From assembly GCA_003971905.1 (NCBI GenBank), contig RSEE01000157.1:1-64000 (forward strand): a stretch of DNA of 64,000 nucleotides. Reading direction: 5' to 3'. The translations under genes were made by a program, and so were the position numbers. The DNA comes from Moniliella sp. 'wahieum' (lineage: Eukaryota). Each line of letters starts with the position of its first letter. Positions within the stretch are counted from its first letter, which is position 1. The notes beneath the pieces are model-generated. The model made no database searches, was not told the origin of the DNA, and saw only the letters and a program-made list of their open reading frames with translations. Shown piece by piece: positions 210 to 61,092 of the stretch.

Positions 210-272
210 GAAGCTTGAAGCTTGAAGCGTGAAGCTTGAAGCGTGAAGCTTGAAGCTTGAAGCTTGAATCTT
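210..272. repeat. Tandem 7-mer (GAAGCTT)x9, degenerate units GAAGCGT/GAATCTT
   Basis: Read directly: nine consecutive 7-bp units built on the AAGCTT palindrome. Confidence 0.95.
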
Positions 273-1286
273 GATCGGCATGCCGTTGCTGCGGCCATCG
301 CCATGCACCATGCGTCATCGACATCATCGATCACCGCTCATCGCTCATCTCGATCATCGGCCATCTACAGCCTAGTGTGCCAGTAACTATAGTAACCCGT
401 CCAGCTACGTCGAACCTGGGAACGTGTGCGCACGCGGGGGGCTGAGATCTGAGAAACGGTAGGGCACACGCGCAAGCGCCATCTGCGCCTCCATCGGCTC
501 ACTTGCGGGCAAGTGCCCATCGACCCATCGAGCAGCGCCCCTGCTGCAGAACTAACCAGTGACCAACCGGCCGCAATCCAAGCACGCCTACCGAGTACTG
601 AGTACCGCCTGTCAGAGCGAGGCAGCTGATCACGAGTATGGGGGAACGAAGTATCGAATGAAAGCGGTGTCGGCAGGTCGTGGCGAGAAAACAGAAGCGG
701 ACCGACCACGCAGCACAAATGAAGTGCGAGCGCGGGCAGAGCACTGGCCTAGTGCCCGCGTCCCATAGCGTCTGTTTAACGTTGACGTTACGTTGAGGTC
801 AAGCTACTGTTTCCACATCCCCACCGACCCTTCGCGGAATGGGGAACAAAAGAGTGAAAAAATTATACATCATTCACCACACTCTCAACTCACAACTCTC
901 AAATCCCAGCCCGGTACTCAGTTATTCACCACCAGCAATAGACTACCCTCCTATTGTCGAGCCTGACCAACGCGAGCCACCATGCCCTGAGGGCTGATGG
1001 TCGAGCAGGGTGATCGGCGAACGTGAAGAACAAAACAAAGGGAGTGAAATTGAACCCGTCTCGCCCGAGGGCGGGAGGGTAGAAATGGCCATCACACAGG
1101 ACACAGGGGAGGTCACCGGTCACCGGTCACTGGTCACGACGACCTCCCTCGCACGAAGAAAGAACCTGGCCAAAGAAGCAGGCCAGGAATCAGGGAATCG
1201 GAGGCAGAGGCCCGAAGTGGCCGGGGAATTGGGAATTGGGAATTGGGAATTGGTGAGGTGCGCGTCGGGCCAGCGAGCCGAGCGGT

Positions 1287-1563
1287 TTACTCGTCCCGGA
1301 GCGCAATGTAGAGCGCGTGGATGAGACCAGGGAAGTAACCAAAGCACTGGAGGAGCAGCCAAGCACATGGATGGTCAGTGGTGGGTCGGGCAAGAGACGG
1401 GAAGAAGGCAAACAAAAGGCGCGCGGGGAGAAGGATTAACAAAACGTACGGTAAGAACAACGTTGATCCAGAACTGGGCCGTGCAGCCCACCTTCATGAA
1501 CACGCCAAGAGGCGGGAGGATGATGGCAAGGATGATGTCAAGGCAAGTAGCGCCGCCGCCCAT
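1287..1563 (-). CDS. PMP3: Plasma membrane proteolipid 3 (Pmp3/UPF0057), 57 aa, 2 exons (1563-1450, 1346-1287)
   Basis: Spliced product MGGGATCLDIILAIILPPLGVFMKVGCTAQFWINVVLT|CFGYFPGLIHALYIALRDE*. Intron 1449-1347 has GTACGT donor, CTGAC branch and CAG acceptor. Typical Pmp3 motifs ILPPLGV and PGLIHALY. Confidence 0.93.
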
Positions 1564-3765
1564 GGTGGAGAATGCAGGAAGTGGTGGTGGTGGTAGGTCA
1601 ACAAGCTTCGGAGGGTTAAACGCTACAAAGACAGCCACGGCCCGAGGGGACTGGGCCAACTTGCCGGAGCGCGTGCGCAGCCAGAAGGAAGCCGGCAGCA
1701 GCACACTGGCGCCGCGCTGCCGACGCCTGCTGCGCCCCGTCGCGCATGGAGGGTTGAGATTGAGGCCGGGGCACAGGGCGCGCATCCAATTCTCCACGCC
1801 CGATCGGAGGGCAGCAGGCTGCCCCTGTGCCTGGGCCAGCAGGCCACCGGATAGACGGGGGATGCATCGATGACATCACCCTGCCGCCGTCTGCGCGCGT
1901 CCTGACGTGCATGATGCATGATGCATGATGCATGAGTCATCACCCATGGTGGATGTTCGATGATGTCAGAGGCAGGCGGGCCTGCAGGGGCTGGCCCAGT
2001 GGGCAGGACGTAGGCTTGCGCGCGGTGGGCGTGGAGGGTGGCGTGACAGGTGGCATGCGGCAGGGCGCATGTCGTGTGCAACCTCGCGTCACGCGTCGGC
2101 CAAAGTCAGCGGTGCATGTTTTGCAGCCATCTCTCCGATCTCGACGCACCTCGTTCGCTCCGTTGCCTTGTCACATGTCGCCTGGCAAGGACCACGTTGA
2201 GCCTGCGTGGTGCACTCGAGAGGGGACCAACGACGACACGCGTCAAGAGCGTACACCGCACACCCAGCCATCTCGGACGGTTCCCTCTGGTCTGTGTGCA
2301 AAGGCAGTACCCTTAACGATAAGGATTAAGGTTGGTACCGGCTAGGACCCATGGAGTAACGATCTCAGACCTCAGCGCACGCTCTCGGCCGGCCGCGGTG
2401 ACAGGTGCCCCCCCCGTGGTACTCATCCTCACCGCCTCCGGCTCACCGGAGTGTCGATCGCTTCGCACCTACCAGCACCAGGTACCGCTTGTGTCTTGCC
2501 TCTGTTTTTACATGGCCAGGGTCGATATTGGGCTGAGTGCTGTGAGCCTCAGCGCTGAGCGGGGGTTGGGTAAACGTTAAACCGGAAAAACGGTGAAGGA
2601 ACGAGGAAGGCTCTGCGCGCAGCGCAGCCGCCGCTTTGTACTGATCGAGAGAGACCTTGGTACCCACGTTCCATCCAACCATCAGTTACTAGTTACCGCA
2701 AAGCGGGTCCTGCGCTTCGCCCATATGGCACACATGGTTTTCTTAATGAGACAGCAGCGGCGGATGAGCTGATGAGCGGGGGAAAAGACAGCATGCAGAG
2801 GGAGGAAGGAAGGACTCTCCCGTCCACTCCAATCGCGGTGAAGGTACCAGGTTGGGTGTTGGATCAGGCCTCAGGCTGAGGCCTCAGGGATGCAAGTGGG
2901 CCATATCCAGACGGAGAGGCAGGAACGAAGGCGACGGCCCAAAGGATGCACACTGTCCCAACAGCGATGCACATAGCGACGCCCACCATCCGTTTTTTGC
3001 ACTCCAAATGAAGGTACTGCTGGCGCGAGGATGCTATGCCACCCCGACTGCTAGGAAGATGGTCAAGACTGGAACACGTGAGCCACAGAGTTTGGTTGAA
3101 TAACCATGGCTTCCATGTGCCCGACGTGACGCTACGGTATTGTATGCCCTGGCGCTACACCAGACTTGAACAGGCGGGACGGCCGGACCTACTGACACGG
3201 CCGTTTGGGCGTCCTCCTTGAGTGGACCTGACCTGCCACAAACGCCTGCAGCACGAGCGAGCCCAGTGACCAGTGCCTAGTGGCTGAGCGCGGCGCTGGA
3301 TGTCCCCTCAGTACTCAGTCGTCTGTCCCTGCTCAGGTGCTAAGCTTCAAGTACCTCGAGTAACGTTGATGATAGATATATATCTGTGGAGACTATCATG
3401 GCCCTCTTTGGCCACAGGACATTGCACCGCCCTTGCCAGGCAGGCATCTGGAAAGGTGGAACTCACTCCTCACCCGGACCGTCTGCGACGTAGGGCACAT
3501 CCTCACCGTGGTCCAGGGAAGAGAAGCGTCCCACGGGCCTAAACTCTAAACCCTCAGCACTAAAAACAGGCCCACGTGCTACCGTGGATAACCTACTAGG
3601 TAAACGTTGGCCTGTACCGTACTATACGCCTCGTGCATTGTTCGGGACCCACAACTGCGCCGAACCGCAGGCGGACAACAAGCACGCCAGCTGCCCCGCA
3701 AGGCCGCTGTGGCGACCATGACCAACCGGGACGACGACAGAGGCCGCTGAGGGGGAGAGGAAGAC

Positions 3766-5511: not shown

Positions 5512-7027
5512 GGCGCGGTGGGAGGAGCAGCGGCGGGGGGCGCTGCCTTGCCTGCCTGCTTGCTTGCTGTAACCCAGCTGCCTCCCACGCGACGCGCCGG
5601 CTTCGATTTCAGTTTCAGGCTGCGCCCGCCACGGTCACGTGCCTCCCCTGGGGCCACCAGGTGGCGAGCCGACCACTGGTGTCCTGCCTCCCGGTCGAGC
5701 CCCATACGCACCACGCCCCGATGCCAACCAGCAGCACACTCGGCGTTCGTTCCTACCGGGCCACCTGCGTCTAATGATGCTAAGGTGATGGACGGTACTC
5801 TCACGCCCAAGATGGGTTGGTTAGGAGCAATGGGTGCGCCCCGGTAACGTTGCGTTCGCGTGGTGCAACCCAAAGAACAGCCATCACGATCGCAGTAGAG
5901 CCAAGCTACTCCACTCGGCCCCCTTCTGTCGTCAACAGGAGTATCGCCGCAGATAACTACCCAGCGTGCCGAAAACTACACACATACAAAGACTACTACG
6001 TCCAGCAGAGTGTTGGCAACAATGCAAATGATTTGGGGCACACGGGCGCAGGCGGCCACTTGGACAGGGGGCATGCCCGACCGGCAGGCGGGCCGGCAAC
6101 TTCACATAGCTGAGAAACAACGGCGAGCAGAGCTTCGAGCCATTGGCAAGCTCACCCAAACGGGAGCTGCTTACTTGGAGCGGGCACGCATCTTTCTGCG
6201 TTTGCGGCGCAGACGGCGCATGCGTTTCTTCCTCCACTTCGCTCTCACTGCACCACAGGCAACGTTAGCCACAGTCCTTCTCACCGCAGCAGCAGCTGCG
6301 AAGGGACCCGGATAGGCGGGGGAGGCAGACACTCACTTTTCGGGTGACCGGTACTGAGAACGCTGGTGGAGAAGAGCTACACAACTAGGGCAGTAAACAC
6401 CATATAAGAGTCTGGGGCGGGAGGGTAGGGTTACAGCAGGCGCATTTGCCGCAGCAACCCTAAGGTGTGGCGACATGGGTGACGCTGACAACATGAAATC
6501 GATGAGCCGCTGATGCATGATGCATGATGGCCTGTGGATTTCCTTAGGCACTAGTCACTTGTCACACGTCACATGTCACTGCCTCTGCGAGCGTGTCCGG
6601 TCACCGGTCAGGTGACCACATCGATGATTGATGTCGATGACTCTGACGCGTGACGTCATCATTACCGGTTGATTGGTCAGCATCTAAAGTTGGGGGACTC
6701 AACTTTATTATCACAGTGTCCAACCCAAGCACACGACCCAGCGTAACTCTAGCTACATCTATAAGCCGATCTGGGATGCTCTGGCAGAGCATGCAGCAAC
6801 CACTTGTCCAGCCACTGGCATCCTTCTCTCGAAGCAACGAGCCCAATGGGGGTACCATGTAACAGGTAGCCATGAATCGTGTCTCATGCATCATTATGCG
6901 TTACGCGTTACGCAGCATGGACCCGCAGATCCACCAGCCGACTCCTCTCTCCCATCCGATCGGGAGCACGCAGTCAACCATTATGATCCTAGGATGGGAA
7001 CTGCCTTGCAGTAGCTCTCAATCGCTC

Positions 7028-12441: not shown

Positions 12442-14376
12442 GCCGATCCGCATCCTCGCAATTGTACTACTCCTGCCACCCAAACCCCGTCTGCGTAGAG
12501 GAGAACACATCGAACTCCGCTGTGCTCGGCCTGTCCTCGTTTCATTCAGTCAAATAGGCGGCCAAACGCCTTGCATGGGTTCGTCGTGGCCTCACCCATC
12601 TACATTGATCGCGGTGCCCGCTTGACAGACTGGTTCTTGGCAGTCGAAACCGTCTCGGTCCAGTGTCCGGGCTGGGAATGCGGGACCCAGTAGCTATTTT
12701 GTTGACACGGAGGAACGGGCCGCTGCACCTTGTCCTTGCTTTCGGGGTGGTATAGCAAGTGGCCCAAGGAGTGGCACGTGCAAAGAGCGGGGGGGAAACC
12801 AAGTCGAAACTGTACCTTGTACCCCGTAGCCAACAAAGATAAACAAACCTGCTTGCCCAACCGCTTCTTGGCAGCGAAATGGGCAGTGCACTGACTGGTT
12901 GCTGGCGTGAGTCGCTGCCGTTTCCCGGTTACGGTTCAGCCGTCTACCCTGGGTACATGAGCACAAAGCGTTGCACATCAGCTCGCACAGAACCAATTCG
13001 GTCCGGCCCTCAATAGCTCCAAAGGCTCCACCACCGATAGTGGCTGTGGGGTTTCAGTTAGCTCAACACAGCAGCGATCGCCGACTCTATGTGAAAAAGG
13101 GAAGATTCACCTGCCAAAGAAACGCACGGATGGACGGAGCAGCGTGGTTATACGTTACGGCCTACAAGGGAGTGGTTGTGTGTGCCATACGGTTGGCGTA
13201 CCGGAGAGAGTTCGTTGAAATTGGTCAACACACAAACGACTTATTGCTATCCGTTTGAACGCTGGCCAGGAATGGGATTGGCACTGAACATGGAGATGTA
13301 CCAGGTACGATTGGCGCCACCGAAGATCCGGTTCCCTTGACCACCTGCACACGCCAAGCTGACGGGCGAGAGGGTAGAAACGGATGGTGGCGCTGAAGGC
13401 TGAAGAGCAAGACTACGGCGATAGGGTCCGCAGTGTGCTTATTGATCTGGGCGCGAGAGATATCCATTGAAGGTGTCGGGATGTTGCGCGATTCCCGTCA
13501 CGGTGACACGGCCGTTCCCATTTCAGTACCAGTTCGCAATGCTTCCCTTACAATGGGGGATCGCGCCATCTTGAAGCGCACTGCCAAGGCTGTACAACTG
13601 CCGCACGAACGCGGCCCGAGCTACTGGTGCGCTGCAGCGCGTACCCGTCTGACACTTTCCCACGAACGTACGCCGGAGGCCGTGCTCCCGCCCGGACACC
13701 ACCTGTAGCCTCGTGCGGAGCAAACTGCAAATGCTGTGCGCTGCGACTGAGTACTCAGACTGAGTGCTCAGGCTGAGCGCCGAGTAGGTCCTAGCTGCTG
13801 GGCAGGCCCTTCTCGAGCGTGCGGTGGGGTAAAACGACAACGTATCGGCTCCGCAGCAAACACCTCGGCGGCAACAATTTTGAGTGCACGACATGCACGC
13901 GGCACGTGACATGCAACGAGGGGGTGGCAATCGGCCAGGGCACAACCCTACCTGAACTGCTGCGGTACGGCGGAAGAATGGACCGAAGCAAGGTACGCTT
14001 CCTCTGCGGAAGAGCGGTACAAATATCAGAATTCCGACAAGACTGGCGAGGTGCCAGGAGGCAACCCTAGGTCCCGCGAAGCCAGCGGCGCCTCCGGGCC
14101 CTAGGTGGCTGGGAGAGGGTGTCGGACACCACCAGCCAAGCAAGGTCGTCAGTCAAGTGCGTATCTGTCCCTGTCCTTGGGAAGCGCAGTTGGGTCCGGC
14201 GTGACAGAGGGGGAGGAGAGATCGATGTGGTTCCGGATGCGGATGCGGATGCTGATGCCGGTGGACGATCGCACGGTTGACCCTCGAGTGCTGTCCGCTG
14301 GGATGGGGTGCTGGAGCGGTGGGACACAAGGGCTGACCTTTTGTTTGTTTGCATTTTCCGTTTGCCGTTTGCCAGG

Positions 14377-15363: not shown

Positions 15364-16270
15364 TTAGGAATGGAACAAGCCTGCTTCGCGCTCGATGCGC
15401 GGCACCGTCCCTGACCGGGCCATGTTGAGAAGCGACAAGTAGATGGTCCAGAAAACCTGATGCGGGGGGTTAGTACCTAGTTAGGATCGGCCCGGGCATG
15501 AGAGCAGAGAGGAGGGGGACGCACCCCGCACGTCGACATGAACGGCACACGGTACTTGAGCGGCATGAAACGAAAGTTGACCAATTGGACCACGGGCCAT
15601 ACTTGCCAATTGGCCAATAAGGCTTCGGTGTACATCTGGTGAGTCTCCAAAGTCAGCTTGGTTGTATCGTGGGTGGGAGGCACGTACGGATCGGTACTTG
15701 TCCCCGATCTCCTTGGGAGCCTGTCCTTCCAAGACGGAGATGACGCCAATGAATGCCGCGACGGAGAAGGGGCCACTGGGAAGGTGTAACATGTAAGCAG
15801 GACAAGCACAGATCAGATCAGGGCAGAGCAGAGCCGCCGAAGCGGAAGCAGGAGCAGGAAGCAGAAACAGAAGCGGACGAACAAGATGGTTTGATCTACG
15901 ACGACCCGTCGGAACAGGAGAGGCAAGCGGACCACGCCCGCTTGCACAATGGGAAACCGGCGCTCCAGCATCTTGTTCCATACATCCAACGGCGGAGCCA
16001 TGAACATGCCAAAGCCGAGAACGGGCGGAGCGGGCCAGGTCAAAGCCCACGGCCGATGGGGCTGCTGCTACGTCCGGCACGACGGCGGGCTTTTCTTCCA
16101 GCTCGGAGCTGGCTGCAGCAGGCCGAGTGGGGGGCGGTGGCCGCGTACAGCTCAAAGCCCTGTGCACACGCATCAGCCACGACGCTCAGGCCGCCATTGG
16201 TGGCAGCCAAGGTGAGCCACGGATGGCGCTCAAACGAGCGGCCATAGAACGCAGAGAAGCGAGCGAACAT
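15364..16270 (-). CDS. Mpv17/PMP22 family membrane protein
   Basis: RHPWLTLAATNGGLSVVADACAQ..FGMFMAPPLDVWNKMLERRFP..RVVVDQ..LANWQVWPVVQLVNFRFMPLKYRVPF..FWTIYLSLLN. Several introns. Confidence 0.9.
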
Positions 16271-16989: not shown

Positions 16990-18873
<1,884 letters not shown>

Positions 18874-26190: not shown

Positions 26191-27365
26191 GCAGGAGTAG
26201 CACGCCATCGTCGGGCAAGTAGGGGGCCGTGTTCCTATCCTAATGTTTCAATGCGCGTCGTGCTTCCAGCTTTTCGCTCCCTGCCCCGTCTCCCTGCCTT
26301 GACAAAGGAGAACGTCCATTCGTGTAGCCCTGTCCTTTCGGACAAAAACATCATTGTTCCAATCTGCAGATGGGAACCCCGGGTTCAGGTCCCCAAGGAC
26401 CCCATCAGAAGAGTATAATCCGTGTACGAGGCGGTAACAAGGAGCAGGCAAAGTCAAAAGACAGCTAGGGAAAGCTACTTAGCATAAGCGAACCTATTAA
26501 ACCCAGCAGACAACCAAACAAACAACAGCAGAACCGAGAAAGGGGAGCTAAGCAGGAAGTAGAGGGTTCCCAGACAGTCTCAACCCCAGTTGATGCGGTG
26601 AAATGGATCGGGAGTGTGGTAGGGATTGGCAAGAAGCCCGAGCACAGAAACAAGTACGGGGTAGGAGGTTGGGTGTTGTGCGCGGTCACACAGCGCGCGA
26701 AAAGTCAATGCATTACCGGCATCACCCTACTAACATGCTCTAGGGACGCTGTCCGCGCCTCTCCCTGTTCCTGTGCTCCACGGGCACTGGCACCTGCTGC
26801 AGAACTGAGATCTGATGTTTCCTGCTCATGCACTACACTCAAAAGATCAGTTTCGGTTTGGGTTGGAGAAGGGGTACTATTAAGGGAGGAGTTCCATTGC
26901 CCTGTCGGCACTAACCTCGCTAGCCCAGTACACAGAGAAAGTGACGACGCCCACCGCGGTTGGGGAAGAATCGCGATGCGCGATGGGCGACGGAGGAGGG
27001 AAGAGGATAAAAGGGGAGGGGAGCACAAGGGAGAAAGGGGCAAGTCGAAACCAGTCGACAGAGAACCAACGTCATCAAGACCATGGCTGCCCTTGCCTCA
27101 CCTCGTGCCCCCAACCAACCATGGCAACACAGTTGGTGGGGGGGTCTCGGGGCCCCTACCAGGGGGCCCAAACAGTACAAAAAAGAGGGCTGTCTCAGGG
27201 TCCGGACGTGTAGATAGGGCAGGCAAGAGGGTGGCGGCAAGGCACAAAGGGCAGAGAAGAGGACAATACGATATCGAGCGCATACGTGTTCTCCAAGTCT
27301 TACGCCCACACACCCTTGGCGCGGGCGCATGTAGTTGGAAGAACGGTGGTGCGGCATGCGCTTCT

Positions 27366-28987: not shown

Positions 28988-29972
28988 AGCAGAGAAGGTT
29001 GGTTGGAGAGGAAGTGGGGGGGAGGGAGACGATGGACAGCAGGGAGCAATTGGGAGGAGCAAGGAGCCAAACCGACCAGCGGCAGGAGAGCAGGAGAGGA
29101 AAGGGAGAGGAGGTGACGGTGGTGAGAGGGGAGGGCGGGGCGAGGTCGCCGTGAGGGTGCCGGTATAAAACCGCGCAAGAGATGATTTACCGCTGGCACT
29201 GGCTTGCCCCAAGGGGAAAGAGCAGCACAGGGGCCGTGTGGCGGGGCCAGCACGACGCGCCACGAGGCGGCGTGGCGCCAGCGTGGCGCCCCCTGCGGCC
29301 GCGTGCGTGCGGGAGTGTCGCTCAACCCTCCACGAGCACCTCAGACTGCCGCAGAGGGGCAGTGTGGCCTGCAGCGATCCTCGCCTGATCGTGATCTCAT
29401 CTGCAGCACCGGACTCAGATGGTCGCCGCCGCAGCAGCAGCAGGGCCGTGTCCAGCCAGGCAGCGCATCCACACAGCCCGGTGCGGGCGCCGCCACTTGC
29501 CGCCTCGGCGACATGTCGTTCCAGCGTGGTTGGCAGGCTGCCGCGGGGGCAGTGTGGGCCATTGCACGTTGATCATTGCATCAACACAGGCGGTGTTCAA
29601 TTGTTCAGTTGCACGCTGAACGTTGAATAGGGGAGTTGAACGTTCCCTTTTACAGCACCAGGTATACACACATCTACTACCGCGGCGGCGACGATGCTGT
29701 CTGTCTCTTGGCGCCAACACACATTCCAACCCCAAGCTGGAGCGAGAGACATAGAAGCAGGAGGGAAAGCGGGCGCATGCACCGCGCCAGCCGACGAGTT
29801 CCAATTGGAGTTGGGAGATGGAAGCGAAGAGGAGGACAAAATGATATATTTACGTACGGGGTCCGGGCAGAGGCGCGCCGAGAGGCCAACCAGATGGTTT
29901 TTGCTTCAGGAGAAGTTGAGTTCCAGCGAGTACCACCACTGCTATGCATGTGTGCCGATCCCTGGTCAATCG

Positions 29973-32380: not shown

Positions 32381-33179
32381 GGTGGCGAGGGTGGTAGACC
32401 AGGTGGACGCGGAGACAGAGTGCACGGTGTAGGATAAGAAAACAGCAGCACGCAGAAAATATTTTTTGGTGTTTAGCCCGACGTTTACCCGACCGGGGGA
32501 AAAGCCGGGGGGATGTGGCTGGTGGGTGATGGGTGGTCGGTGATCGACGAGGCAGGATGGATGCGGTCGAGGACAGGATGGGGTAACCCTAGTGGTGGAT
32601 TTGCTGGGTTTTGAAATGTGCACTGTGGACGCAGGCACGGCATGGCAGTGTGAGATGTGCGATGTGCGATGTGCATGTGATCATGTGATCGAGCTGCGAT
32701 CTGGATCTGAGCGATCTGAGATCTGAAGCCGAACGCGCATCTGAGATCTGACACGTGGCTGGAGGAGCCCAAGCGCCAGCCAGAGCACGACGGAACGATA
32801 AGCGCTGAGCCGACGGGAGCGTCGTATACGCTCCGCCTGCCTGAGACTGCTGATCCGTGCAGCGGGTTAAAAGTGCTGCCCAGCCAGTGCGTCTGCTGTG
32901 GGTGCGCATGCGCCCCCCCCAGCCAGCCCCACCTGCTCCGACGCGGCGCCCGCCGCTCCCTCTTCCCTGTCTTCTGTCCGCTCCCCGCCCTCCGCGCCCT
33001 CTTCCGCCCGCCGCCAATTCCCTCGCCTCCATCCCCATCCCCATCCCCATCCCACACCAACCACCGCCGCTTGCGCCCCGCCGCCAGCGCCCCCGACTTC
33101 TCCCGCCCCACCCGTCGTCCGCCTCCCTCGGTGGCCCCGCCAGACGAGGCGCTTGCCACTGCCGCCGCCCACGAGTCGG

Positions 33180-36088: not shown

Positions 36089-36173
36089 CGCCCCACGTGG
36101 GACTCGAACCCACAACCGTGAGATGGACCTCTGAAGTAAGAGTCTCAAATTCTACCGATTGAAATAGCGAGGC
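36089..36173 (-). tRNA. tRNA-Lys(CTT) with 12-nt intron (36136-36125)
   Basis: GCCTCGC-TA-TTTC-AATCGGTA-GAAT-T-TGAGA-CTCTTA-[CTTCAGAGGTCC]-A-TCTCA-CGGTT-GTGGG-TTCGAGT-CCCAC-GTGGGGC-G, then CTTTTTT terminator. Confidence 0.88.
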
Positions 36174-36565: not shown

Positions 36566-37698
36566 TCACTTGTACAGCCGGACGACAGTCGAGCCATTGA
36601 TCGGCATTCCATCCTCCTCGCTCACCAGGGAGGGGGAAAAGGAGGAACTGTGGGGCGCGAGGTCGGGGCGATGAAAATGGACTTGGCCGGAATACTCCAA
36701 GTCCTGGACAATGCTCTTGGCGCCGCCCAATCCAACGCCCCCTACGGCGGTGGCCACATCGCGCGCGGGCAAACGGCCCTGGGTGGCAATCAACTCGGTC
36801 CCTGGCCTTGCCTGGCCCATCGCTTGCGAAGCGGTCTGGACAAGACATATGGTGCCATCCAACAAGGATTGGGTATCCAGGAAGGCCAGTGCCAAGCTGC
36901 CCCTGTGAGCTTGCTGATGAACGGTGCGGACAATGGTCTCCATCTCCTTCACTGCGTCTTGGTTTGTTCGCGCAGCCGTGCCGAGCCAGTGTACAAACAC
37001 CGTCGGCATCATCCACTCCCGTGCACCTTCAACCACAGCCCGGTGCAGCACGTCATACCCGTCCATCTTGGCGGACGCCTCAGGAAGGACAAAGACGACG
37101 ACGGTCTTGTTGTTAAAGTGCTCCATCGGTGGCAACTTGGTACCGATGGGGAAAGTAAGAACAGGATGCACCGACGCATTGCTCGTCACCGCCGCCAATT
37201 CGTCCGGCGCGGCATGGACGGAGCAGGACCATTTTTGGCGTGCGAGCGAAAGGATCCTTCGTGGTTTCTTTGCGTCCTGCCTCGGGGAGCTACCGGGTGC
37301 AGTGGCAAGCGTATGCGGCGGCGAAGTGTACACGACAAGACCGAGTGGTCGATTCCCATGGACTTCAACCCATTCATCTGCCCCAGCACCTCCCGTGCCG
37401 CATACCCAAACGAAGCACACAGATGCTCGGCCGAGCGAGTGGGGCTGTGGGGCCGGTCAACAAACACCAACGCAAGCGGCGCCGTATCCCGCTGCCAGAC
37501 GTAATGGGCGATCGCTTTGACAGTGTTGGCATCGCCGTCTTGTTCGTGCTGGGGGCAAAAAGAAGCAGGCGGGGTCAGCTGCCTCGCACTCAATTTCGGT
37601 CCAACAACGGGACAAGTACCGTGTGCGAGTAACTAGTAACTCACCTCCCAAGGATGGAAGACAATCTGTGTCCCCAGCTCGACCGCCGACTCGTTCAT
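36566..37698 (-). CDS. Hypothetical protein, possible C-terminal winged helix
   Basis: Exon MNESAVELGTQIVFHPWE splices in frame (intron 37644-37549, GTGAGT..CTGAC..CAG) to HEQDGDANTVKAIAHYVW. Long globular-looking ORF 36566-37420. Family not recognised. Confidence 0.55.
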
Positions 37699-39440
37699 CG
37701 CGGTCTGGAGAGCGGCCTCGGTGGCCCGTCCCAAATGGCGGGTGAGAAAAAAGACCCACGTGTTGCGCTGGGCGCGTCGGCTGCTGCCCCGTCGGGGGGG
37801 GGGAGGATGCTGCCGGGCAAGCCAGCTGGCTCGGCTGGATCGCCCGGCGTGGCGGGCGAGGACAAAGCGGAGGCGGCGTGACGGGGGGACAGGGGCATGA
37901 ACCGTGGCTAGTGAAGCGAATGACGGGGGGGAAGCAACCGGGAGAAGCAGCACGCACGCCCACCTCCCCTCGCCGGGCCAGACGCCGAGATGGTGCGTTG
38001 GTCATGAAGGAAAAGGCCAGGTGCGACGCAGGCTGTGATGCATCCCGACGGCCGTTTCCTGCAGCGCTGCAGCGTCGGCCTACAGCACAGGCACGCACTA
38101 GCCCGCACTCCCGCCTGCGCCCGAGCGGGCCAGGGTGTCGGCGACGCGTGACGCGTGACGCGGACCGCTGCCGGCCGAAAGTGGTCACGCATCACGCACC
38201 GCATGGTGTGTGACGATCGATCATCGATCATTAACATTTCGATCGATCGGACGCGGGATGTGTCATGCATCATGCACCGGCAGGCCGCAACCGGGGAACC
38301 GGAAAGCCTTAAAGCTTAAATGAGCACCATCATGCATTGCATCTCCACTGCCGCCTGTGCATGCCACATGTCACCCGTCCATCGGTGGCAGCTGCATTGC
38401 AGGCCCCGCGACGAGATCTGAGGGATCGGAGACCCGCTATCCGAGTATCCAACAGTATCCAATCCGACCGGTTCCCACCTCTTCTATCCAAGGGGGGGGG
38501 TAAGCGCTATTAGGGCATGCTACTGTAGTTGGCCATTCCTGGCTCTTCTTCCCTGTTGGAAGCCGTTGGAAGCCCGGCAAGCCTGCCTCTGGGCCCAGGA
38601 AGCGTGGGCAGCATGTTCATGGCATGACATGTGACATGCATGTGACATGTGACGCTGTGATAGAATGCGAGTGTGATGCATGTGATCTGAGACTCAGACC
38701 CATGGCGTTCGGGGTTTCGGGTGGGAGGCTTCGGGAGCTATGTTGGTACGCGTTACGCCTTGAAACTGACCTTGTGAGTGCTGGGTGGCCGCCGGTGGAA
38801 GTCATTGATCATTGGGTGCGTGGCTGGGCGCACTGACTGGGCGCTGGGGAAGGGAACAGAAACGGGAACGGGAACGGGAACACGGGGACGGGGGACAAAA
38901 AATTCTAACTGCCGCTGCATGTGATGCATGCATGTGACATGTCAGGGAGATGCGGTGTGTTTGTGATACCTGTGATGGGGGCTTTCCCTCGCTTTCCAAG
39001 CCTTCCCTCGTTTTTCCCAGCTTTCCCCCCCTTCTTGCTAGAATGCGACTTGGGATCGTCTCGTGAGCGCGCGTGAGCCTCATGGATCAGTAGCTGCAAA
39101 ACAGCCTAGCCTTCAAACAAGGCGTGAATTAGGCAAAGTGGTGAGACGCAAGTCTTGAAGCAAAACGTCTGCAGGGAAAGGAGACAGGAGAGAGAGAAAG
39201 GAGGGTGATGGAGCGAGCAGAGGGTGCGCAGCCAGCGAGGGGAACTCTCCCGCCCGGGTGGCGGGCATCGCCGATCAACAAAGGATAATAGCGGGGAGGA
39301 TCGTATCGACGGATACCCTCTGATGTCAACACTCAACATACGGGATAAGTATCATGTCCTTTTCATACAGTTGTTCACACACTGATTCATCAATGCCTGT
39401 CCTCTCTGTTAAAAATCCTTGCATCCGTAACAGGATATAT

Positions 39441-39556
39441 GGAGATGGGGGAAAGGATAAGGATCATATTCATCGAGTGGAAAGAGAGCAAGATATATAT
39501 GCCTCGGAGAAGAAGAGAACATGCGAGCTATGTCACACGGAGGGAAAGAGGGAGCA
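39441..39556 (+). repeat. Dispersed repeat copy A (~120 bp), inverted relative to 57550-57675
   Basis: Shares the exact core GGATCATATTCATCGAGTGGAAAGAG and flanking similarity (CCTCGGAGAAGAA, GTCACACGGAGG, GGGAGCA) with the reverse complement of copy B. Confidence 0.85.
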
Positions 39557-41279: not shown

Positions 41280-44200
41280 ATGACAACCGCCCCGTCCCCT
41301 CCCTCGGCCGATGCAGCCACCGGCCGGGACGTGCGCCATGAAGGGGCTGTGCGGCAAGACGGGCCTGTTTGCGCCCGAGATCCCCTGTGCCGTCGACGAT
41401 GCTCCGGCAGACGAGGTGCGTGTCTGGAGGGCGTACGCTGCGGATGTAGTCCTGCGGACTGAGTACTGACCCCCGCCGCTCCATCTGATGGTCGCCAGCC
41501 GGACTCTGCCTTTCGCTCCCTGCTGCTGGATGTGTGCGGCGCCGAGTTTGCGTCGGGTCCCGTGTGCTGTGAGCCAGGCCAGGTCGAAATCCTGGCTGGC
41601 AACCTGGACCAAGCGTCGCCGCTCATTTCCTCGTGCCCGGCCTGCAGCAACAACTTCCGCCACTTTTGGTGCTCCTTCACCTGCTCCCCTGCCCAATCCC
41701 AGTTCCTCGAAGTAGCCCAGACACAAACGATCGACGGAAAGGAGGCTGTCAAGCAGGTCAACTACTTTGTCTCGAACCAGTTCCGCCAAGGGTTTTACGA
41801 TTCCTGCAAGAACGTCCAGTTTGGTGCGACGAATGGGTTTGCGATGGACCTGATTGGCGGTGGCGCACGCAACGCCGATGACTTTCTGTCGTACATGGGC
41901 CAGGAGCGGCCGCTGCTCGGCTCTCCGTTCCAAATTGACTTTCCTCCTCCCCCCTGCCCACAGTGGCGGGACAACTCAACCGCACCTCTCCTCTTGCTTT
42001 TTCCAAGCCTCTTCCTACACCGTTTGATCCGCCAGCTCGCAACTGCTCCGGGGGATCTGCGGTCGCGTTGTGCGTGCATTGATTGCCCCGACGTTTGCAC
42101 CTCGCTCCCTGATGTTCCGGCACCATCGGAGCAGCAAGAGTGCAAGCTGTTTGCTTGGCCTTGCAACCAGCTGGTTATCACCATGTTGTACTTTTTCGTG
42201 CTGTTCCTCTTCTGGGCTGGATTCCTGTGGAAACGCTCTGCCCCATCGGCCTCCAAGAATTCAAACCGGCGCCACACCGTGCCTGTGTCAGCGCCCGTAC
42301 CCGAGACAGACCAACCTAGTTTTCGCCCAGACGAAGGTACTGCACCTCCCTCCCACGCCGGCGTACCGGAGCCACAGGCGGACTCATCTGCGTACGACAG
42401 GGAAGCGCACACGCCCGCGCCTGCATCCCAGCAGCCTGGGGCGCATGCGATCCAACGTTGGCTGTCCCGCAGTATGTACCAGCTGGGGCTCATGTCGGCG
42501 CGCAACCCGTGGCAAACCTGTTCGCTGGCTGCGCTCTTGCTTGGCGTAGCCAACCTTGGCTGGATCTGGTTCCGGGTCGAAACCGATCCGGTCCGGCTCT
42601 GGGTCGCGCCCAACTCGACGGCCAAGAACGAGAAGGATTTTTTCGATCGCCAGTTTGGTCCGTTTTACAAGACGGAGCAACTGTTTGTTACCGACCGAGC
42701 TGCCGCTGGGTTTTACCGCCACCGCGACCCGTTGGATCATGACAATGCGATTGAGGACTTACCTCCCGTGTTGACCTGGCCGCGCTGCAGTGGTGGGCTG
42801 ATGTTGAGGCTGAGATCCGCGCGCTGAAGGCTGGGCCGAATCAAACGTCGTTCCAAGATGTGTGTTTTGCTCCGAGTGGACCTGGGGGTGCCTGTGTGGT
42901 GGAGAGCATCATGGGTTACTTTTCCGACGACCTGGTGCGTGCCGGGGTCACCAAGCACAATTGGCGCAGCAGCCTGAACCAGTGCGCGGCGCGCCCGGCC
43001 GAGTGTCTACCGCTGTTTGGTCAACCGCTGAAACCGAATTTGATTCTGGGTGGGATTCCGATCGATGCGCCTCCGGCCGACGCACGTGCGTTGGTGGGCA
43101 CCTGGGTGGTGGAGAACAGTCTCGATAAGCGCAAGCTCGCCCGTGCCGAGGCATGGGAGCGCGTGCTGCAGGCGTTTTTGCTGGACTTGGCGGGAAAGGC
43201 GCCCACGGGGAGCAAGCGCCATCCCTTGGCTCTTCGTGCCAAGCAACTCGGATTGCACGTCTCCTTTAGCACCGGTGTCAGTTTGGAGGAGGAGATTTCG
43301 TCCAGCACCAATACCGACACGGGCATCGTGGCGCTGAGTTATCTTCTCATGCTTCTGTATGCATCCTTGGCCTTGGGCGGAGGCTACGTTCCCGCACGTA
43401 GGGTGGACGCCCAGGGTCAGGTTGTGCATTCTACGTTCTGGGGGGACGTGAAGACGGCGCTATCTTGCCGCCCGAGAGGCATTCGTTTGCCGGACGACAT
43501 GCTGGATGAGCAAGATGCGCGGGCGAACGCCCGTTCCCGCCTCATTGCCGGCTTCTTTGTCCGTTCCAAGGTCACCCTCGGTCTGTTCGGCATCTTGATT
43601 GTTATGGTAGCCATCTCATCGGCGGTGGGGATTTGGTCGGCGCTGGGAGTGCGGATGACTCTGGTGATTGCCGAAGTCATTCCCTTTCTCGTGCTGGCTG
43701 TCGGGGTCGACAACATTTTCCTCCTTAGCAACGAGATGGACCGTCAAAACACCCTTTGCAGCACCAGCAACCCGTACTATGATACCCGTGACGACGACGT
43801 CCACGCAAGTTCCCTGGGCGAGAACAACGAGGTGGATGCGATGCAGGCTGGCCATCGGCCTACAGAGTCCATGCCAGCCTTCCACCTCTCTGCAGAGGAG
43901 AGGGCGGCAAGAGCGTTGGCGCGCATTGGGCCGTCAATTGTGCTGAGTGTGTCGATTCAAGTCAGCGCCTTCTTACTGGGCGCGCTGGTTCCCATGCCGG
44001 CCGTGCGCAACTTTACGCTGTACGCGGCGGGGAGCATGGCGATTGCCGCCCTGTTGCACTGCACCGTCTTTGTCGCTGCGCTTGCGCTAGACGCACGACG
44101 GAACGAGAGCGAACGGATCGACTGTTTCCCCTGTGTCCGAGCCCGCAAGCCTGCCCACCTGCCGGTCCAAGCGCTCTCGGTAAGCTCTAATACGGACCTG

Positions 44201-45780: not shown

Positions 45781-46402
45781 GATCCGAGAAGACAGGGCCG
45801 CGCAGGACATATGCGAGCGGAGTTCGGTCGGCACACTGCCCGCCAAGCACCAATGGATTCGCTTCTGGCAAGCTTGAATCGATTCCCACTGACATACCTC
45901 ACATGTAGTCAGCTAGTGTATATTCGACGAGAGTCGATGCGCTCCGTGCCACATCGTCACCAACACCGCCTGGGACAGGTGGTGCTTCACCGCAGAGCGT
46001 CCTTCGCTTCCCGCGAGCCTCGTTCAGGACGTTCAGGCCGCGTTGAGCGTGCCCGAGGTGATTCTCTCAACCCCGCTGATCATCGACCAATGCATTACGT
46101 TCCGGGGCGATGGTGCAGGCGCGGAGACGAGCGTGATGGGGGGAGGCAGTGCGTAGATGACTTTCCTCGTATATATTGCGCACCACAGCGGGGCTGCGGC
46201 CAATGATAATGAGGCCAACGGCTATCTTATTACCGCTTCTTCTTTGTTGTCCCCTTGGAAGGACCAGACTGTGCTTGCTACGGCATACAAAATGAGACAC
46301 CAAAATGACGGGGGGCAGGGAGCAAGTAGGATTCGATGAAAGAGACCAGATAAGTGTTACATGACAGTGCGTGCAGCCCAACTGCGCGGAAAGCGCCTTT
46401 TC

Positions 46403-52510: not shown

Positions 52511-54318
52511 CGTGGGCAGAAAGAGTTGCTTTGCGGCTGAGGTGTGTGGGAGGGGGGGGGCAGGAGCAGGAGCAGAAGCAGCGAGGGCGAGCTGGGAAGG
52601 TGGATGGCAAGGTGGGTAGAGAAAGGAGCTGAAACTGAAGGCGAAGCTTAGCGGGAGGCATAGGTGACGTGTGATGGGTGACACGCGTGAGCGGGGATGC
52701 ATGATGGGTGGTGAGCGAGTGCATGGTTGCGTGGTTGCATGATGATAACTGTTTAAACTTTCATTTATTGCTCACCGTGTCAACGTCGAGTGGGTGAGCA
52801 TGAGTACGTTCAGTGTTGAATGTTGAACGTTCAAGTTGAGCGTTGAATATGAACGTTGAGACTGAGTTCAATATCAACATTGAGGGTACTGAGGGTACTG
52901 AGGTACTTGAGTGCTGGGCGCTGGCGAGGCACGGGTGAGCGGGTGAGGCTGGTGCTGGGTTCCCGTTCGAGCTGGGTGCTCGGGTACTCCGACCGGGTAC
53001 TCTGAGATGCGGCTGCCTCGGGATCGTCACGGGTCGGCTGGTGGCTGGCGAGGTGCGGGCAAGGCGGTGGGGATGTGCGGACCACCAGGCTGGCGCGGTG
53101 CCTCGGTGCCGGGCAGCCCCGCTCGCTGCCAGAGTGGCTGGGGCGGACCAGGCCGTGTGCCGCCTTGGGCAGCTCACAATGCACAATGAGAAAGAATGCA
53201 TGATGTACCATGCTGATGCATGGTGTCGATCGATCATCGATCACCGGTCGCCACTGCCTGGCCGTGTTTAAGCGTGTAAGTCAAACGTTGAACGTTTTGA
53301 ACTCAACCGGCCTCTATCGCAGAGTCGATAGGCGCTAGGCAAACTATCGTGCGAACACGGATCGGGCACCGACTTCCTCTCTCACATGTCACAGCCGCAC
53401 CCTACCACATCTCCTCTTCGACTGGATTGAACATCGCATCTTACCGCCATCGCTGTCGTCTGTAGGCGTGGCAAAGAAATCCACACATACAGCGGTGTTC
53501 GCATTCACCACAGCAACACCCCTCCTTCGCCACTCTGTTCTATCTGACATTCCCTTTTACACAGGCTGATTCTTTTCCCTCCCCGTGTGGGCGGGCTTTC
53601 CTCTCTACATGGACCTTCCCGCTTCATCTCCACTCCTTCTGCCGCCCGAGATCTGACGCAGTCAGGCAATGAAAGAAGGAGTGAATCTCTTCTATGATCA
53701 TATTATACCCTCGTCAACGTCCTTTGTTTCTTCGCTTGCGTGCCCCATCCTTCCCCTGTATATCTTCCACATAGCTTCCAAAACTGCGACGCCATATGTT
53801 ATATGAAAACACACTATAAGCCACCTCACCGTGGTAGAGACGACATCTGATGATCAAGTCCCTATACTATTCAAAAGGCGCTACTACTATACTGCTATGA
53901 CTTAACCCATACATAGTGTAAGAACCATCCCGGGACAGCCGAGCTCTCTGGTGAGAGCGTGTCAGTTCAAAGCATCCATGAAGAGCCACTGACGGTGCGG
54001 TCGATGCACACTCCGTTAGTATAGAACTAAACATAGCGTGGCGAGCAACACACACTAACCCAGAGGATGTGAGGAAAGGCATCGGGAAACACCACAAAAG
54101 TCGGACCGTCGGTAGTTCAATACACCCAATTTCCGCACATTTTTCTCATTCACATATCATATTAGCGCCATGTGCAGTCATTTGTCTCCTGTAAGAACAA
54201 CGGCCACGGGCGCTCTCTTCTGAGTATATACCCAGACGCCATCCATGTATGTTTTTGCGAGAAACGTATCACACAAGATGAGGAGTGGCCAGATCGTCAA
54301 TCTTTTTTGGCCCCCATA

Positions 54319-56506: not shown

Positions 56507-56747
56507 TCTTCTTTCTTCTTCTTCTTCTTTTTCTTCTTCTTCTTTTTCTTCTTCTCTTTCTTCTTCTTCTTCTTCTTCTTCTTCTTCTTCTTCTTCTTCT
56601 TCTTCTCTTCTTCTTCTTCTTCTCTTCTTTTCTCTCTTCTTCTTCTTCTTTTCTTCTTCTTCTTTTCTTCTTCGTTTCTTCTTCTTCTCTCTTCTTCTTT
56701 CTTCTTCTTCTTCTCCTCCTTCCTCCTCCTCCTCCTCCTCCTCCCCC
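56507..56747. repeat. ~240-bp polypyrimidine microsatellite, (CTT)n grading into (CCT)n
   Basis: Read directly; nearly pure C/T on the + strand. Confidence 0.97.
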
Positions 56748-57549
56748 TGCTCTCCCCCTGCTCCTCCTCTCCTGCTCTTGTTTATGCATGGGAGCATATG
56801 TCTCTCAGGAGCTAGACAATAAACCCTATATGACATCGCCGCCATCGCCGCATTGCCATACGCCACACATTCCCATCAGTTTTCATCTCTACTTGATAAA
56901 AACATGGGAAAAGCCCTCTGACACTATTGACACAGCCAGCCCAGCATGGGCAATCTAATTTCGCCTCTCCAGCGGTGTGGAACGACGGTGGAACGATAGC
57001 TAAGGTGGCGACGGTGGAAAGGTGGCTAAGATGTCGACGCAAACAGGCTATAGGACCGATGGTCTCCTAGTTGCTGTGTACTACTATAAATCTCCTACAG
57101 TAGGCATGGTGATGGAGGACAACATGTAAGTTCTGCGTAAGACCTCAGGGAAGAGATAGGCCACCCCTAGGTGCTTAGATACAAAAAAGGGGGCCAAAGT
57201 TACTTACCGGAAGGTGGTAGATGAGTAATGCTACGGTAACGCAGTGAACGCCGATGCGAGAAGAGCATAGGCCGTTGTTGAGTCATTGGAATGCAACAGT
57301 GAAGCAAAGTCTCATAGGGGGGCATTCGGGAGCCATTATTCCCCCTGGTCATGACGGAACGCGGGTACTATGCGCCACACAATTGTGTAACCAAGATGTT
57401 TTGCCACTGGAACGAGCTTATTTTGCTGGCGAGGTACTAACTGTGGAGATGGTTCTGTCGGGATGTGACCCACTTGGTCACTGTTTGATCACAAAGTTGA
57501 TTGGTCCCTGATTTGTTCTAGACTACCCTCTGTTTTCCCTCTTTGTTTA

Positions 57550-57675
57550 TGCTCCCCTTCTTCCTCCGTGTGACTTGCTCACATGTTCTTCTATTCTTCT
57601 CCGAGGTATATATAGACCTCGCCCTCTTTCCACTCGATGAATATGATCCTCATCCTTTCCCCCCTCTCCATCTCC
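57550..57675 (-). repeat. Dispersed repeat copy B (inverted copy of 39441-39556)
   Basis: See copy A; both copies give the peptide LALFPLDEYDP in the ORF track. Confidence 0.85.
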
Positions 57676-59617
57676 TATTAGGTGCCTCACTAGCATACCG
57701 ACCACGCTCAGCACTCATTCCACTTTCGTATCCTCAAGCGCTAGTATATTTCTGTGATTTGGAAGAACATGGCGGGCGTTAGAGGGTCCTGTGAGACCTG
57801 TTGAGAAAACACACCATACAGAACTGAGCTCTTATTGCGTTCTTCAAGCTTGACACGAACTGTCACGGCACCCGTCACGGATGAGCGAGAGCGTGCTGGG
57901 CGCTGCCTTTTCCCTCAAGTTTCGCAATACTATATGTATTCAGATGTATTCAGAAGCTATATACTCTCTTCCTGTTTTCCCTTCTCCTCTACTGTGAAGA
58001 AAAAGCCCTACACTGATTCATCTACGGACGGACTGGAGGTATACGTACCAGCGAAGGAGAATAGCGACGTCCTGATCCACCTGGTTAAGGAGACCGCAAA
58101 ATGGATGCTGAAGCGCTGAAGCGTATAGGACAGTATAGCGTAGGCGATCAATTGCGGGTGAGAGATAGGCATTGGTGGTATAGGAAGCAGGACGAGGGCT
58201 TAGCGTTAAGGCTTAGCGCTAAGTTTTAGCCCTAAAAGGCCTAACAGGAGAAAAAGCCGCTAGTCGCTGATTGATTATCCGTGGCTAGGCCCTGCGGCCG
58301 GAAGTGCCCCTCCACGATCGGGGACCACAGTCCCCGTAGCTGCAGGATGCTGCAATGGGCGTAGAAGCGTATGGGATACAGTTGCGTAGGCGATCGTTTG
58401 GGGTGAGATACTATACTACCTTAGCCTTTTTGGCCGCTGCCCCACGGGACTTGTGGATCGAACGCAAGGCGCAACGCGTAACGCGTGACGCGTAAAGCGG
58501 GTATCGTGTAAGAACGCTTATTTCTGCGTTTGCTGTTGCGTCTGCCTATTCGCCTGGCTGTGCATGTGAAGCTCTAGTTCATCTCGAAGTTTCAAATGTC
58601 AAAATCCAATGCCAGTCTGATCCGAACAGCGTATCCATATACACCCCACAGGGCTCTGCTATAGAAGCTGTGCGAGTTTGCTATGTACGCGCCTCCCCCC
58701 TGGTCCGATCCCGTCCGATCCGGGCAGACCTATGTCGGGTCGGATGTAGCGCCGACTTTCGGCGTTGCGGCTCCTCTGGTCGCTGCCGCCCATCTCCGAT
58801 GCTGAGGCGCGCGGGCGGCAGCCTCTCATATCTCAGACTTCACATCGATCTCACACGCCACGACTCTCCTCGATCCTAAGGAACTCGGGTCAGATCCCGC
58901 ATCTTGAAGCTTGAAGCTTGAAGGTTGAACTAGAGGCAAAAGCCTGAGCCTAAGGGAGGCCAAGGGAGCTTCAGTATACCAGTCTATCACTCTCAGGCCG
59001 GAGGCGCCGCCTGAGGGAGGTCTGAGGATCTGAGGGGGCTTGAAGCTTGAAGGGCTTGAAGGGCTTGAAGCTTGAAGCTTGACGCTCGAGGAGCTTGAAA
59101 TCGTTCAACGTCCAACGTTCATTATCATTCCTTTCTCAAAGAAGCCTGGTCTGTGCTCGGGATCTTCCGGTTCCCATGGAGTCAAAGGCGTGACGCGTGA
59201 CTGTTTCATCAATCACCGATCATAGATCACCGGGTGTACACCGTCACGCGCGTCAGGGAGCCTCAAGACCTCGATCAGTGTCTGGAGAGCAGGGTAGCCG
59301 GTACGGCAGGGTTTGCTGTCGCATTAGGCCTTAGGCCTTTGGCCCTACTTAGGGCCTTGATTCAAAAGGGTCACCCGGTCACGCGCACGCTTCAACCTTA
59401 GTTGTCCCCAATTTCCCCACCCAGAAGCTCAGGCCACCCTGGCACAACGTGTAGCGTTTAATTTTTGTGTCTTTGCCACCAGCCACTATGCCCAGGGACC
59501 TTTCTCCCGGACATGCGACCGGCAACTAGAGCGACCTCTGCAAGCCACATTTACTGTCTTTGCAGCTTGAGTACTTGGTACTTGATGCACTTGAGTGCAT
59601 TGAATCAAATTGAGAGT

Positions 59618-60012
59618 CTTGAAGCTTGAAGCTTGAAGCAGGAGTAGCATGGATAGGTAGCATCTTGAATGAGCTGGAGCTTGAGCGCTTGAGCAGGCTT
59701 GAAGCTTGAGGCTTGAAGCTTGAAGCTGAGGGCTTGAGGCCTGGGGGATCTGAGGCTGGCGTTCGCAGACCATATGGCCAGGCTTCTTGGTATCTATACT
59801 CGGGACTGTGAAAGAATCAACAGCTGAGCACTATGATGCATGGTACAACCCTGCACATGATGCATGATGCATGTGACATGTGACGTAGTGACACTAGTGA
59901 CTAGTGACTAGTGACTAGTGATAGTGACATAGCGACACTCCCCATGGGTGACCGGTGATGCGAGATGCGTGAGATGGGTAATCGATAATCGATAATCGAT
60001 AATCGATAATCG
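59618..60012. repeat. Cluster of 7-bp palindromic tandem arrays: (GAAGCTT)n, (ATGCATG)n, ACATGTG, (ACTAGTG)x4, (ATCGATA)x4
   Basis: Read directly at 59618-59730, 59856-59882, 59893-59920 and 59981-60012. Confidence 0.9.
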
Positions 60013-61092
60013 GGAATGCGTAGTGCATCATAATGGGGGGGGTGTTTACTTTATGTAGTTGCACAAGTAGGGACTCTGAGATCTGATGTATGAGCATGAT
60101 GCGTGATGGGCTAGCAGCACGCCAGAGCAGCCAGAGCACGCCGACCATCTGCTGCGTTGTTGCCACTGCAACGCCACGACGCTGCCAGGGTACTGTTGTT
60201 TCACTCCGCCCAGGCAGCCACTGGCAGATGGGATCTACATAATACAGAGCGTTGTGAAAACTGGTGCATGAGCACACTTGTCAGTAGTACTCTGTACTCA
60301 GGCTGCCAGTAGTACACTTGAGCATGTGAGCACAGAGTATCGAGTACAGAATACTGAGCACGCATCAAGTCCTCCATCCGGTTTCTATAGCCGGAACGGA
60401 TACAGCCTGTGGCCTGAGGTACAGGCCTGACTGGCCTGAAGGCCTGAGATCTGAGACCCAATACAGCTTAATTACCGTCTAATATTTAATGCAATGATTA
60501 GTGATCGAAATGATCAGCGGCTGAGCCGCAGTGCCTCCGCAGCAGTCAACTGCTAAGCTGTCTCAACAGCACAAGCAAACTGGTAACCGGTAAACGTGGT
60601 AAACGTTAAACGCTAAACTTAACGTTAACCGCGCTCAACACTAAGTACTAACTCCTAAAAGCGTTCTTGCTTCCATGTACGTTAGACGTGGTAAACGTTA
60701 AACATCACGCGTCACGTGTCACACCCGGCTTGTTCGCTCTCGGAGCACTCGTCCCACGTTCCTGTGTCTGCTGGCGGGCTTGGCTCTGTTCGGCTTGGTT
60801 TTTGGGCCCTGCCATCAGGATGGCCATCATGCATCAACGGTTCACCTTCACCTTCATCTTCAAGCTTCAAGCTCCAAGCTTCAGCTTCAGCTTCACCCGC
60901 GCGCCCTCGACGCCTCAACAATCCTGTTCCAACAAGCTTTTGGCCCACCATCGGTTTTCCGCCCCTGCGCCTCAGCTTGTTAGGCCCGCCCGCTGTCTGT
61001 TTCCACCATCTTTGAACCTCTTCTTGCTTGCGGCCTCTCGCTCCAACCGCCGGCTTACTCGCCCACCACATACACACCTTACGGCGTGTCCA

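Follow-up and report, generated by a model that had tools for sequence, protein, structure and literature searches.

Introduction

Enzymes of the hAT, Transib, RAG and MULE types leave the flanks of their elements as hairpins, which are opened by host enzymes and sealed by end joining, thus generating footprints (PMC5499845). For the element Muta1 this flank hairpin is described as comprising 43+43 nt, i.e. an even number (PMC5499845). Ac/Ds footprints in yeasts fall into few, biased products that carry P nucleotides, and those of budding yeast include long palindrome arms (PMC5873905). Within Basidiomycota, 7-bp target duplications have been reported for hAT7 of rust fungi and for Kyakuja (KDZ) of Laccaria (PMC12730594). 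Here we analyze a 64,000-nt stretch of Moniliella sp. 'wahieum' (contig RSEE01000157.1, positions 1 to 64,000; hereafter the window), which carries many short tandem arrays with a 7-bp period. We propose, with a probability of roughly 0.55, that these arrays are stacked excision footprints of a putative cut-and-paste DNA transposon, repeated hits having built the arrays.

The arrays resemble the footprints of hairpin-forming transposons (hAT, Transib, MULE), as well as V(D)J coding joints, in that a duplication is kept and palindromic bases templated by the flank are added to it. As far as such footprints are described in the two reports (PMC5499845, PMC5873905), they also share with them the few predominant products per site and the occasional long palindrome arms. 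Unlike those footprints, the putative scars in the window are seen on the genome side only, with no element in view, occur at about one locus per kb, belong mostly to one dominant class and are stacked in tandem arrays.

Results

The arrays are built by one rule

A first-pass annotation of the window had listed intergenic arrays in which a 6-bp A....T palindrome and one spacer base alternate, so that only a T-N-A (TNA) junction is constant. All of these arrays were recovered at or near their listed positions, many of them as period-7 arrays in the output of Tandem Repeats Finder. There are 24 perfect period-7 runs of at least 16 nt, and when inspected by eye 19 of them prove to be a 6-bp palindrome followed by a single base, the palindrome being of the A....T form in every case; units of the C..G, G..C or T..A form are absent from the 24. 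The other five (GGGAATT, CCGTTTG, GATGTGC, GACTAGG and AGCGCCA) do not contain TNA in any instance. When perfect arrays with 2.5 or more copies are sorted by period, units that are self-complementary form the majority at period 7 alone (13/17), the corresponding values being 6/48 at period 4, 2/9 at period 5, 0/22 at period 6, 0/2 at period 9 and 0/1 at period 12.

The pattern TNA-[4-bp palindrome]-TNA occurs 76 times, versus a mean of 1.91 and a maximum of 7 in 100 dinucleotide shuffles, and in the same shuffles the controls with other outer pairs were at chance (GNC 9 versus 8.2, CNG 7 versus 8.0, ANT 2 versus 1.9). TNA autocorrelation, which had been suggested as a check, had maxima of 2.53x and 1.73x at lags of 7 and 14, respectively. 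The predicted excess of period-7 palindrome+N units, both over other periods and over C..G, G..C and T..A outer pairs, is borne out by the array census and the shuffles. We consider it confirmed that the arrays are genuine and far beyond chance.

The 76 matches collapse to 60 loci, or about one per kb of window, which cluster in a few intergenic stretches. Four-base cores in use number 12 of the 16 possible, in agreement with the earlier estimate of about 12, and GCGC, AATT, ATAT and TATA are absent from the class in which both TNA copies have the same N. Two details of the first-pass annotation need revision: the AGCGCT palindromes at 2549 and 58213 fall into a separate minor class with complementary N, and the G/C bias at N is merely that of background TNA sites, the composition being 0.38/0.38/0.12/0.12 in both. 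Since N has the composition of all TNA sites, the target is T-N-A, and not T-S-A.

One explanation would be that these are ordinary microsatellites, in which hairpin-capable units slip more, so that palindromic heptamers expand preferentially. Some arrays do grow by slippage or unequal exchange: the array at 209-274 has an AGCG variant at 14-bp intervals, and copy numbers of at least 3 are, by a rough estimate, somewhat commoner than independent hits predict. Slippage, however, requires a starting repeat, and cannot make 12-nt single events that mirror one flank. It is also at odds with the lack of self-complementary units at periods 6, 8 or 9, with C..G, G..C and T..A palindromes at chance, and with an array-length mode of 12-13 nt; moreover, microsatellites carry no unit-sequence rule, yet 19/24 arrays share one construction. 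As an origin of the arrays slippage is contradicted, and we regard this explanation as very improbable; as a process that lengthens them, slippage probably played a part.

Coding-like periodicity of G+C at third codon positions (GC3) lies above threshold, which is a crude classifier of coding DNA, at 2/60 loci versus 28% of the window. The absence of arrays from coding sequence had tentatively been ascribed to the stop codons that they would introduce, but this argument is unneeded because a +7 insertion shifts the reading frame anyway. Selection could also be invoked for sites read by a protein or chromatin factor that recognizes TNA at 7-bp spacing, or for stop-codon barriers, and both the 2.53x autocorrelation at lag 7 and the clustering in few intergenic stretches agree with it. 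The core, however, is set by the neighboring bases and varies from site to site among 12 cores, N follows background without a preference of its own, and most loci have only two TNA copies. The binding-factor alternative raised in the annotation gains nothing from these data, and we find it hardly credible.

The elementary event is templated by the flank

The unit event turns abTNAxy into abTNAxy-y'x'-TNAxy (primes marking complements), or into the mirror image of this product; five bases are thus copied directly and two as reverse complement. At the 49 loci with two TNA copies, the 4-mer mirrors the two bases of the left flank only in 19 cases, of the right flank only in 16, of both in 8 and of neither in 6, so that 43/49 follow the flank-mirroring rule, and the two mirror-image orientations are about equally frequent (19 versus 16). 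Flank-mirrored, P-nucleotide-like junctions gave 145 matches, versus 10.2 in shuffles. Where the 4-mer mirrors one flank only, the site must have been non-palindromic before the event. A palindrome that is templated by its flank, and mostly by one side, indicates a process that writes sequence, and not selection for a fixed word.

In the two TNA copies N is the same in 76 cases, complementary in 10 and neither of these in 4. N is therefore copied directly, and TNA belongs to the direct duplication and is not the center of a fold-back. The annotation had suggested a lineage-specific process with TNA specificity that acts at hairpin ends and writes dyads in alternation every 3.5 bp. The process at hairpin ends is supported by the one-sided flank templating; the writing of alternating dyads is not, since the dyad at N is a by-product of the direct copy.

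The TNA preference is also evident when it is not presupposed. Indeed, when the signature xy-y'x'-???-xy was searched, the middle triplet was TNA in 167/845 matches, with enrichments of 6.2x for TCA, 5.9x for TGA, 5.1x for TAA and 4.2x for TTA; the best other triplet reached 1.8x. The length of perfect period-7 identity has its mode at 12-13 nt (25/60 loci), which is the size of one event. We note that the reconstructed targets slightly favor G at -4 and C at -3 (and, in mirror image, G at +3 and C at +4), with frequencies of 0.47 and 0.43 versus 0.28 and 0.29, which may be inflated by related AAGCTT arrays.

Minor products favor a duplication of seven bases

Products of +8, +9, +10, +11 and +13 are rarer than +7, and all of them duplicate the seven bases abTNAxy. 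One mirrored base is found in the +8 loci (9652, 32676, 58107, 59021, 59680), two in the +9 loci (46022, 52888, 60589) and six in the +13 loci, which are exact at 2869 and 13746 and form an imperfect array at 58197. For one, two and six mirrored bases, TNA is at the center of 7/29, 3/9 and 2/2 pattern matches, respectively, versus 3.45% of all triplets. A single +10 product (39062) has mirrored bases from both flanks, and +11, the product predicted when both overhangs are kept, is represented by one ambiguous case at 38630. The period-13 arrays (13745-13777, 2869-2888 and 58197-58235) consist of a 12-bp palindrome and one base, and conform to the rule if the number of mirrored bases is raised from two to six.

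A polymerase template switch at TNA, in which two bases are copied backwards and five are re-copied, would be a small duplication-inversion-duplication, and the product does have this formal direct-inverted-direct structure. Such a switch does not account for the strict T-N-A with free N, for the fixed size, or for the +8 to +13 series, where seven bases are kept and only the mirrored part varies; in addition, a loopless fold-back of 2 nt would be an unstable primer. We therefore judge a template switch to be improbable.

The main +7 product can also be read as a 5-bp duplication with two mirrored bases. Under this reading, the mirrored bases stem from the xy side in 95 matches versus 8 from the TN side, and inspection by eye leaves at least five of these 8 ambiguous, x y being identical to T N. 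A symmetric 5-bp duplication is thus disfavored, as the mirrored bases come from the TNA-distal end only, unlike what a symmetric enzyme would produce. With a 7-bp duplication centered on N this asymmetry disappears: either overhang would be kept and the other trimmed, which would give two mirror-image +7 products in equal numbers. Minor products that duplicate all seven bases, as listed above, are likewise a prediction of this reading. A hairpin through N was rejected on the basis of the 76 same-N versus 10 complementary-N matches, and a 3-bp duplication was rejected because +3 products show no excess (34 TNA versus 2016 other triplets). The 7-bp duplication is favored, but not proven, because the numbers of minor products are small.

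A proposed scheme of stacked excision footprints

The sequence rule, the TNA specificity, the symmetry and the minor products are direct observations, from which we infer the following steps. The putative element would integrate by a 7-bp staggered cut centered on T-N-A, the target being abTNAxy, and its excision would leave both flanks as hairpins with the tip exactly at the element border. A host nuclease would then open each hairpin 2 nt from the tip, so that both flanks end in self-complementary 3' overhangs of 4 nt (xyy'x' and b'a'ab, respectively). If end joining retained one overhang and dropped the other, the product would be abTNA-xyy'x'-TNAxy or abTNA-b'a'ab-TNAxy, a net gain of 7. 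Each scar would double the TNA target, and repeated hits, followed by slippage, could generate the (A-xyy'x'-T+N)n arrays.

As expected of footprints, the target duplication is kept as a direct repeat, as judged from N (same in 76, complementary in 10) and from the seven bases of the +8, +9 and +13 products, and in 43/49 two-copy loci the junction bases are reverse-complementary to the end of the flank that they adjoin. A direct duplication with flank-templated palindromic bases matches the published signature of hairpin-forming cut-and-paste elements (PMC5499845).

Several observations weigh against this proposal. The repair outcome is unusually uniform, with about 60 loci of +7 versus about a dozen of +8 to +13, and the +3 products that would arise if both overhangs were lost are without excess, as given above. 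Lag-7 identity past the array ends is 0.32-0.47 versus a background of 0.284, so that some loci, and probably many, belong to older, decayed arrays and are not clean single events; the numbers of single events given above are therefore maxima. In the stretch from 58.9 to 60.5 kb, 15/17 loci are TGA and none is TCA on the + strand, followed by TAA loci (60584-60692) and then by TCA loci (60705-60860). A symmetric enzyme does not predict such strand coherence unless the sites share descent, and local descent through nested hits and segmental copies is a candidate cause of the TGA coherence.

The element itself was not seen either. The 64-kb window contains no element that combines inverted ends with a 7-bp duplication; pairs of identical 7-mers within 8 kb that enclose inverted ends of at least 11 nt were absent, as in shuffles. 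No transposase domain, but housekeeping genes only, appeared at the cut-offs used in the open reading frames (ORFs) scanned with Pfam, which were fewer than 208 of the 375 of at least 90 aa (150 of the 375, plus 18 + 40 ORFs that partly overlap with these). The sole dispersed repeat (39439-39647 versus 57456-57671, inverted, 81% identity over 221 columns) was inspected for a site before and after scarring, but its copies differ by indels of 1-5 nt only and lack a 7-nt indel. Metagenome matches to the fumarase ORF (80 loci, 58-72% protein identity) were too distant for intergenic comparison and were not used.

Alternatively, the host itself could encode an enzyme (for instance a domesticated transposase or a site-specific nuclease of another kind) that breaks TNA in a staggered manner and hairpins the ends, the same repair yielding +7 with no element involved. 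No element is seen within the window, the outcome is very uniform and loci occur at about one per kb, all of which suits a host enzyme. A single hairpin-forming cut, however, yields mirrored bases without direct duplication, whereas a 7-nt direct duplication is the usual mark of integration, and a one-copy cut-and-paste element is easily missed in 64 kb. We hold such an enzyme to be unlikely. A reading in which no mobile element takes part, and in which a host-encoded activity (such as a domesticated hairpin-forming transposase or a new break-repair route) adds exactly seven bases, templated by the flank, to T-N-A sites time and again, is given a small but real chance.

Relation to known transposon families

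The excision footprints that we propose can be compared with those of several families. As for Ac/Ds, the hairpin model is applicable, and P nucleotides and biased repair are documented for this element in fungi (PMC5873905). In canonical hAT scars, however, the palindromes have at their center the complement of the base that adjoins the element (PMC5873905), whereas those observed here are even (xy|y'x'). Accordingly, canonical hAT products with a flipped base showed no TNA excess (2 vs 9, 4 vs 52, 4 vs 50, 2 vs 36 and 0 vs 2), and the even-palindrome product in the same test gave 46 TNA versus 22 other. The even junction palindrome thus fits a hairpin tip at the element border, as in Muta1 and RAG/Transib, and does not fit canonical hAT. 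The 8-bp duplication of canonical hAT likewise disagrees with the period of 7 and the seven duplicated bases, although a hAT lineage with 7-bp duplications has been published (PMC12730594).

In the MULE Muta1, the tip of the flank hairpin coincides with the border of the element (PMC5499845), and even palindromes would be the outcome. MULEs differ in their duplications of 8-10 bp, and over 90% of the excisions of Muta1 from yeast DNA are reported to be precise (PMC5499845); membership in this group fails on the seven bases duplicated here. Transib/RAG, with a 5-bp duplication and an even hairpin, fits the main product as 5+2, but the mirroring is one-ended (95 vs 8) and the minor products duplicate seven bases. 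The likeness to hAT7 and Kyakuja consists of the 7-bp duplication and the occurrence in Basidiomycota (PMC12730594). Kyakuja (KDZ) combines a 7-bp duplication with CA..TG termini and has no inverted ends, and of these features the duplication length alone can be compared here, and agrees.

PIF/Harbinger and CACTA elements likewise have a three-base target, with 3-bp duplications, and a TNA or TWA target is linked with Harbinger. Both were rejected on the lack of excess of +3 products (34 TNA vs 2016 other) and on the 4-mer being templated outside TNA; a duplication of 3 bp cannot be the source of a 4-mer whose template lies outside it.

Gene content and positions of the loci

The window is eukaryotic DNA with a G+C content of about 60%, and its genes bear introns. 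Pfam scans of ORFs identified NPC1-like, pescadillo, armadillo-repeat protein, fumarase, Ras-like GTPase, ribosomal protein, poly(A)-binding protein and fungal Zn2Cys6 factor genes. The introns and this gene set, including the Zn2Cys6 factor, identify the source as a fungus. Two tRNA genes are present. A tRNA-like gene at 36088-36173 (86 nt, Rfam 45.6 bits) probably contains an intron, and its anticodon was not named by ARAGORN. A 7-kb stretch at 53.5-60.9 kb has a lower G+C content and no ORF with a Pfam match, and encloses a long microsatellite, (TCT)n/(CTC)n, which spans about 270 bp (56507-56777). A 31-base run at 25530-25560 is nearly all C. The loci are listed in Table 1.

Table 1. Positions of the +7 loci, arrays and minor products in the window
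Position	Feature	Details
209..274	(TGAAGCT)n array	about 9 units; AGCG variants every 14 bp
324-333; 443-452	two single +7 loci	TCA-TCGA-TCA; TGA-GATC-TGA
1113..1129	(TCACCGG)n	2 hits
1912..1935	(TGATGCA)n	3 hits
2571..3317	single loci at 2571, 2686, 2864, 3308	plus period-13 product from 2869 (7 duplicated + 6 mirrored)
6511..6910	six-locus cluster	6511 (2 hits), 6569, 6601, 6644, 6884, 6901
9622-9631	single +7 locus	
9652-9666	+8 product	GGTCAGC c GGTCAGC
13745..13777	period-13 array	12-bp palindrome + 1 base = abTNAxy + 6 mirrored
15787..15796	single +7 locus	TAA-CATG-TAA
24230..24239	single +7 locus	TCA-TTAA-TCA
26806..26815	TGA-GATC-TGA	neither flank follows the full rule
29617..29626	TGA-ACGT-TGA	neither flank follows the full rule
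32674..32751	+8 product and +7 loci	+8 at 32674-32690; TGA-GATC-TGA at 32717, 32742
37630..37639	single +7 locus	TAA-CTAG-TAA
38149..38652	cluster	38149, 38221, 38263, 38310, 38625, 38643; +11 product (mirrored bases of both flanks) at 38630
39062..39078	+10 product	CGTGAGC gcg CGTGAGC
41460..41469	single +7 locus	directly upstream of NPC1-like reading frame
46021..46037	+9 product	GTTCAGG ac GTTCAGG
51123..51375	loci at 51123, 51191 (2 hits), 51366	between fumarase and Ras-like genes
52850..53391	loci at 52850, 53234, 53382	period-9 array (ACTGAGG gt)n at 52881-52907
58107-58123	+8 product	
58197-58235	imperfect period-13 array	12-bp palindrome + G
58905..60454	densest stretch, 17 loci	TGA except TTA at 59324 and TAA at 59979; +8 at 59021, 59679; cores AGCT, CGCG, GGCC, TGCA, CATG, CTAG, CCGG, TCGA, GATC
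60584..60869	TAA and TCA loci	TAA at 60584, 60600, 60642, 60692; +9 at 60589; TCA at 60705, 60827, 60860

Discussion

A full-text literature search that does not extend to subscription journals yielded no description of such a genome-wide pattern. The present analysis adds the shuffle and outer-pair controls for this window, the evidence for seven and not five duplicated bases, the series of mirrored lengths, to which the period-13 arrays belong, the mismatch with canonical hAT scars and the link to the published basidiomycete elements with 7-bp duplications.

If the arrays are footprints, they would form a dense fossil record of one transposon, with about one locus per kb in this region, although the element itself may be rare or extinct. 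Its target (nnTNAnn), its duplication length and the position at which the host opens the hairpins could then be read from genome sequence alone. In addition, an entire class of microsatellites, in promoters and elsewhere between genes, could be shown to start from transposon scars and not from slippage. Should there be no element, the pattern would point to a site-specific insertion process that has not been described; an element-free host activity, if true, would be an endogenous mutational process with site specificity, to which most heptamer repeats in the non-coding DNA of this fungal lineage would be due. Either way, the rule is sharp enough to be scored automatically in other genomes.

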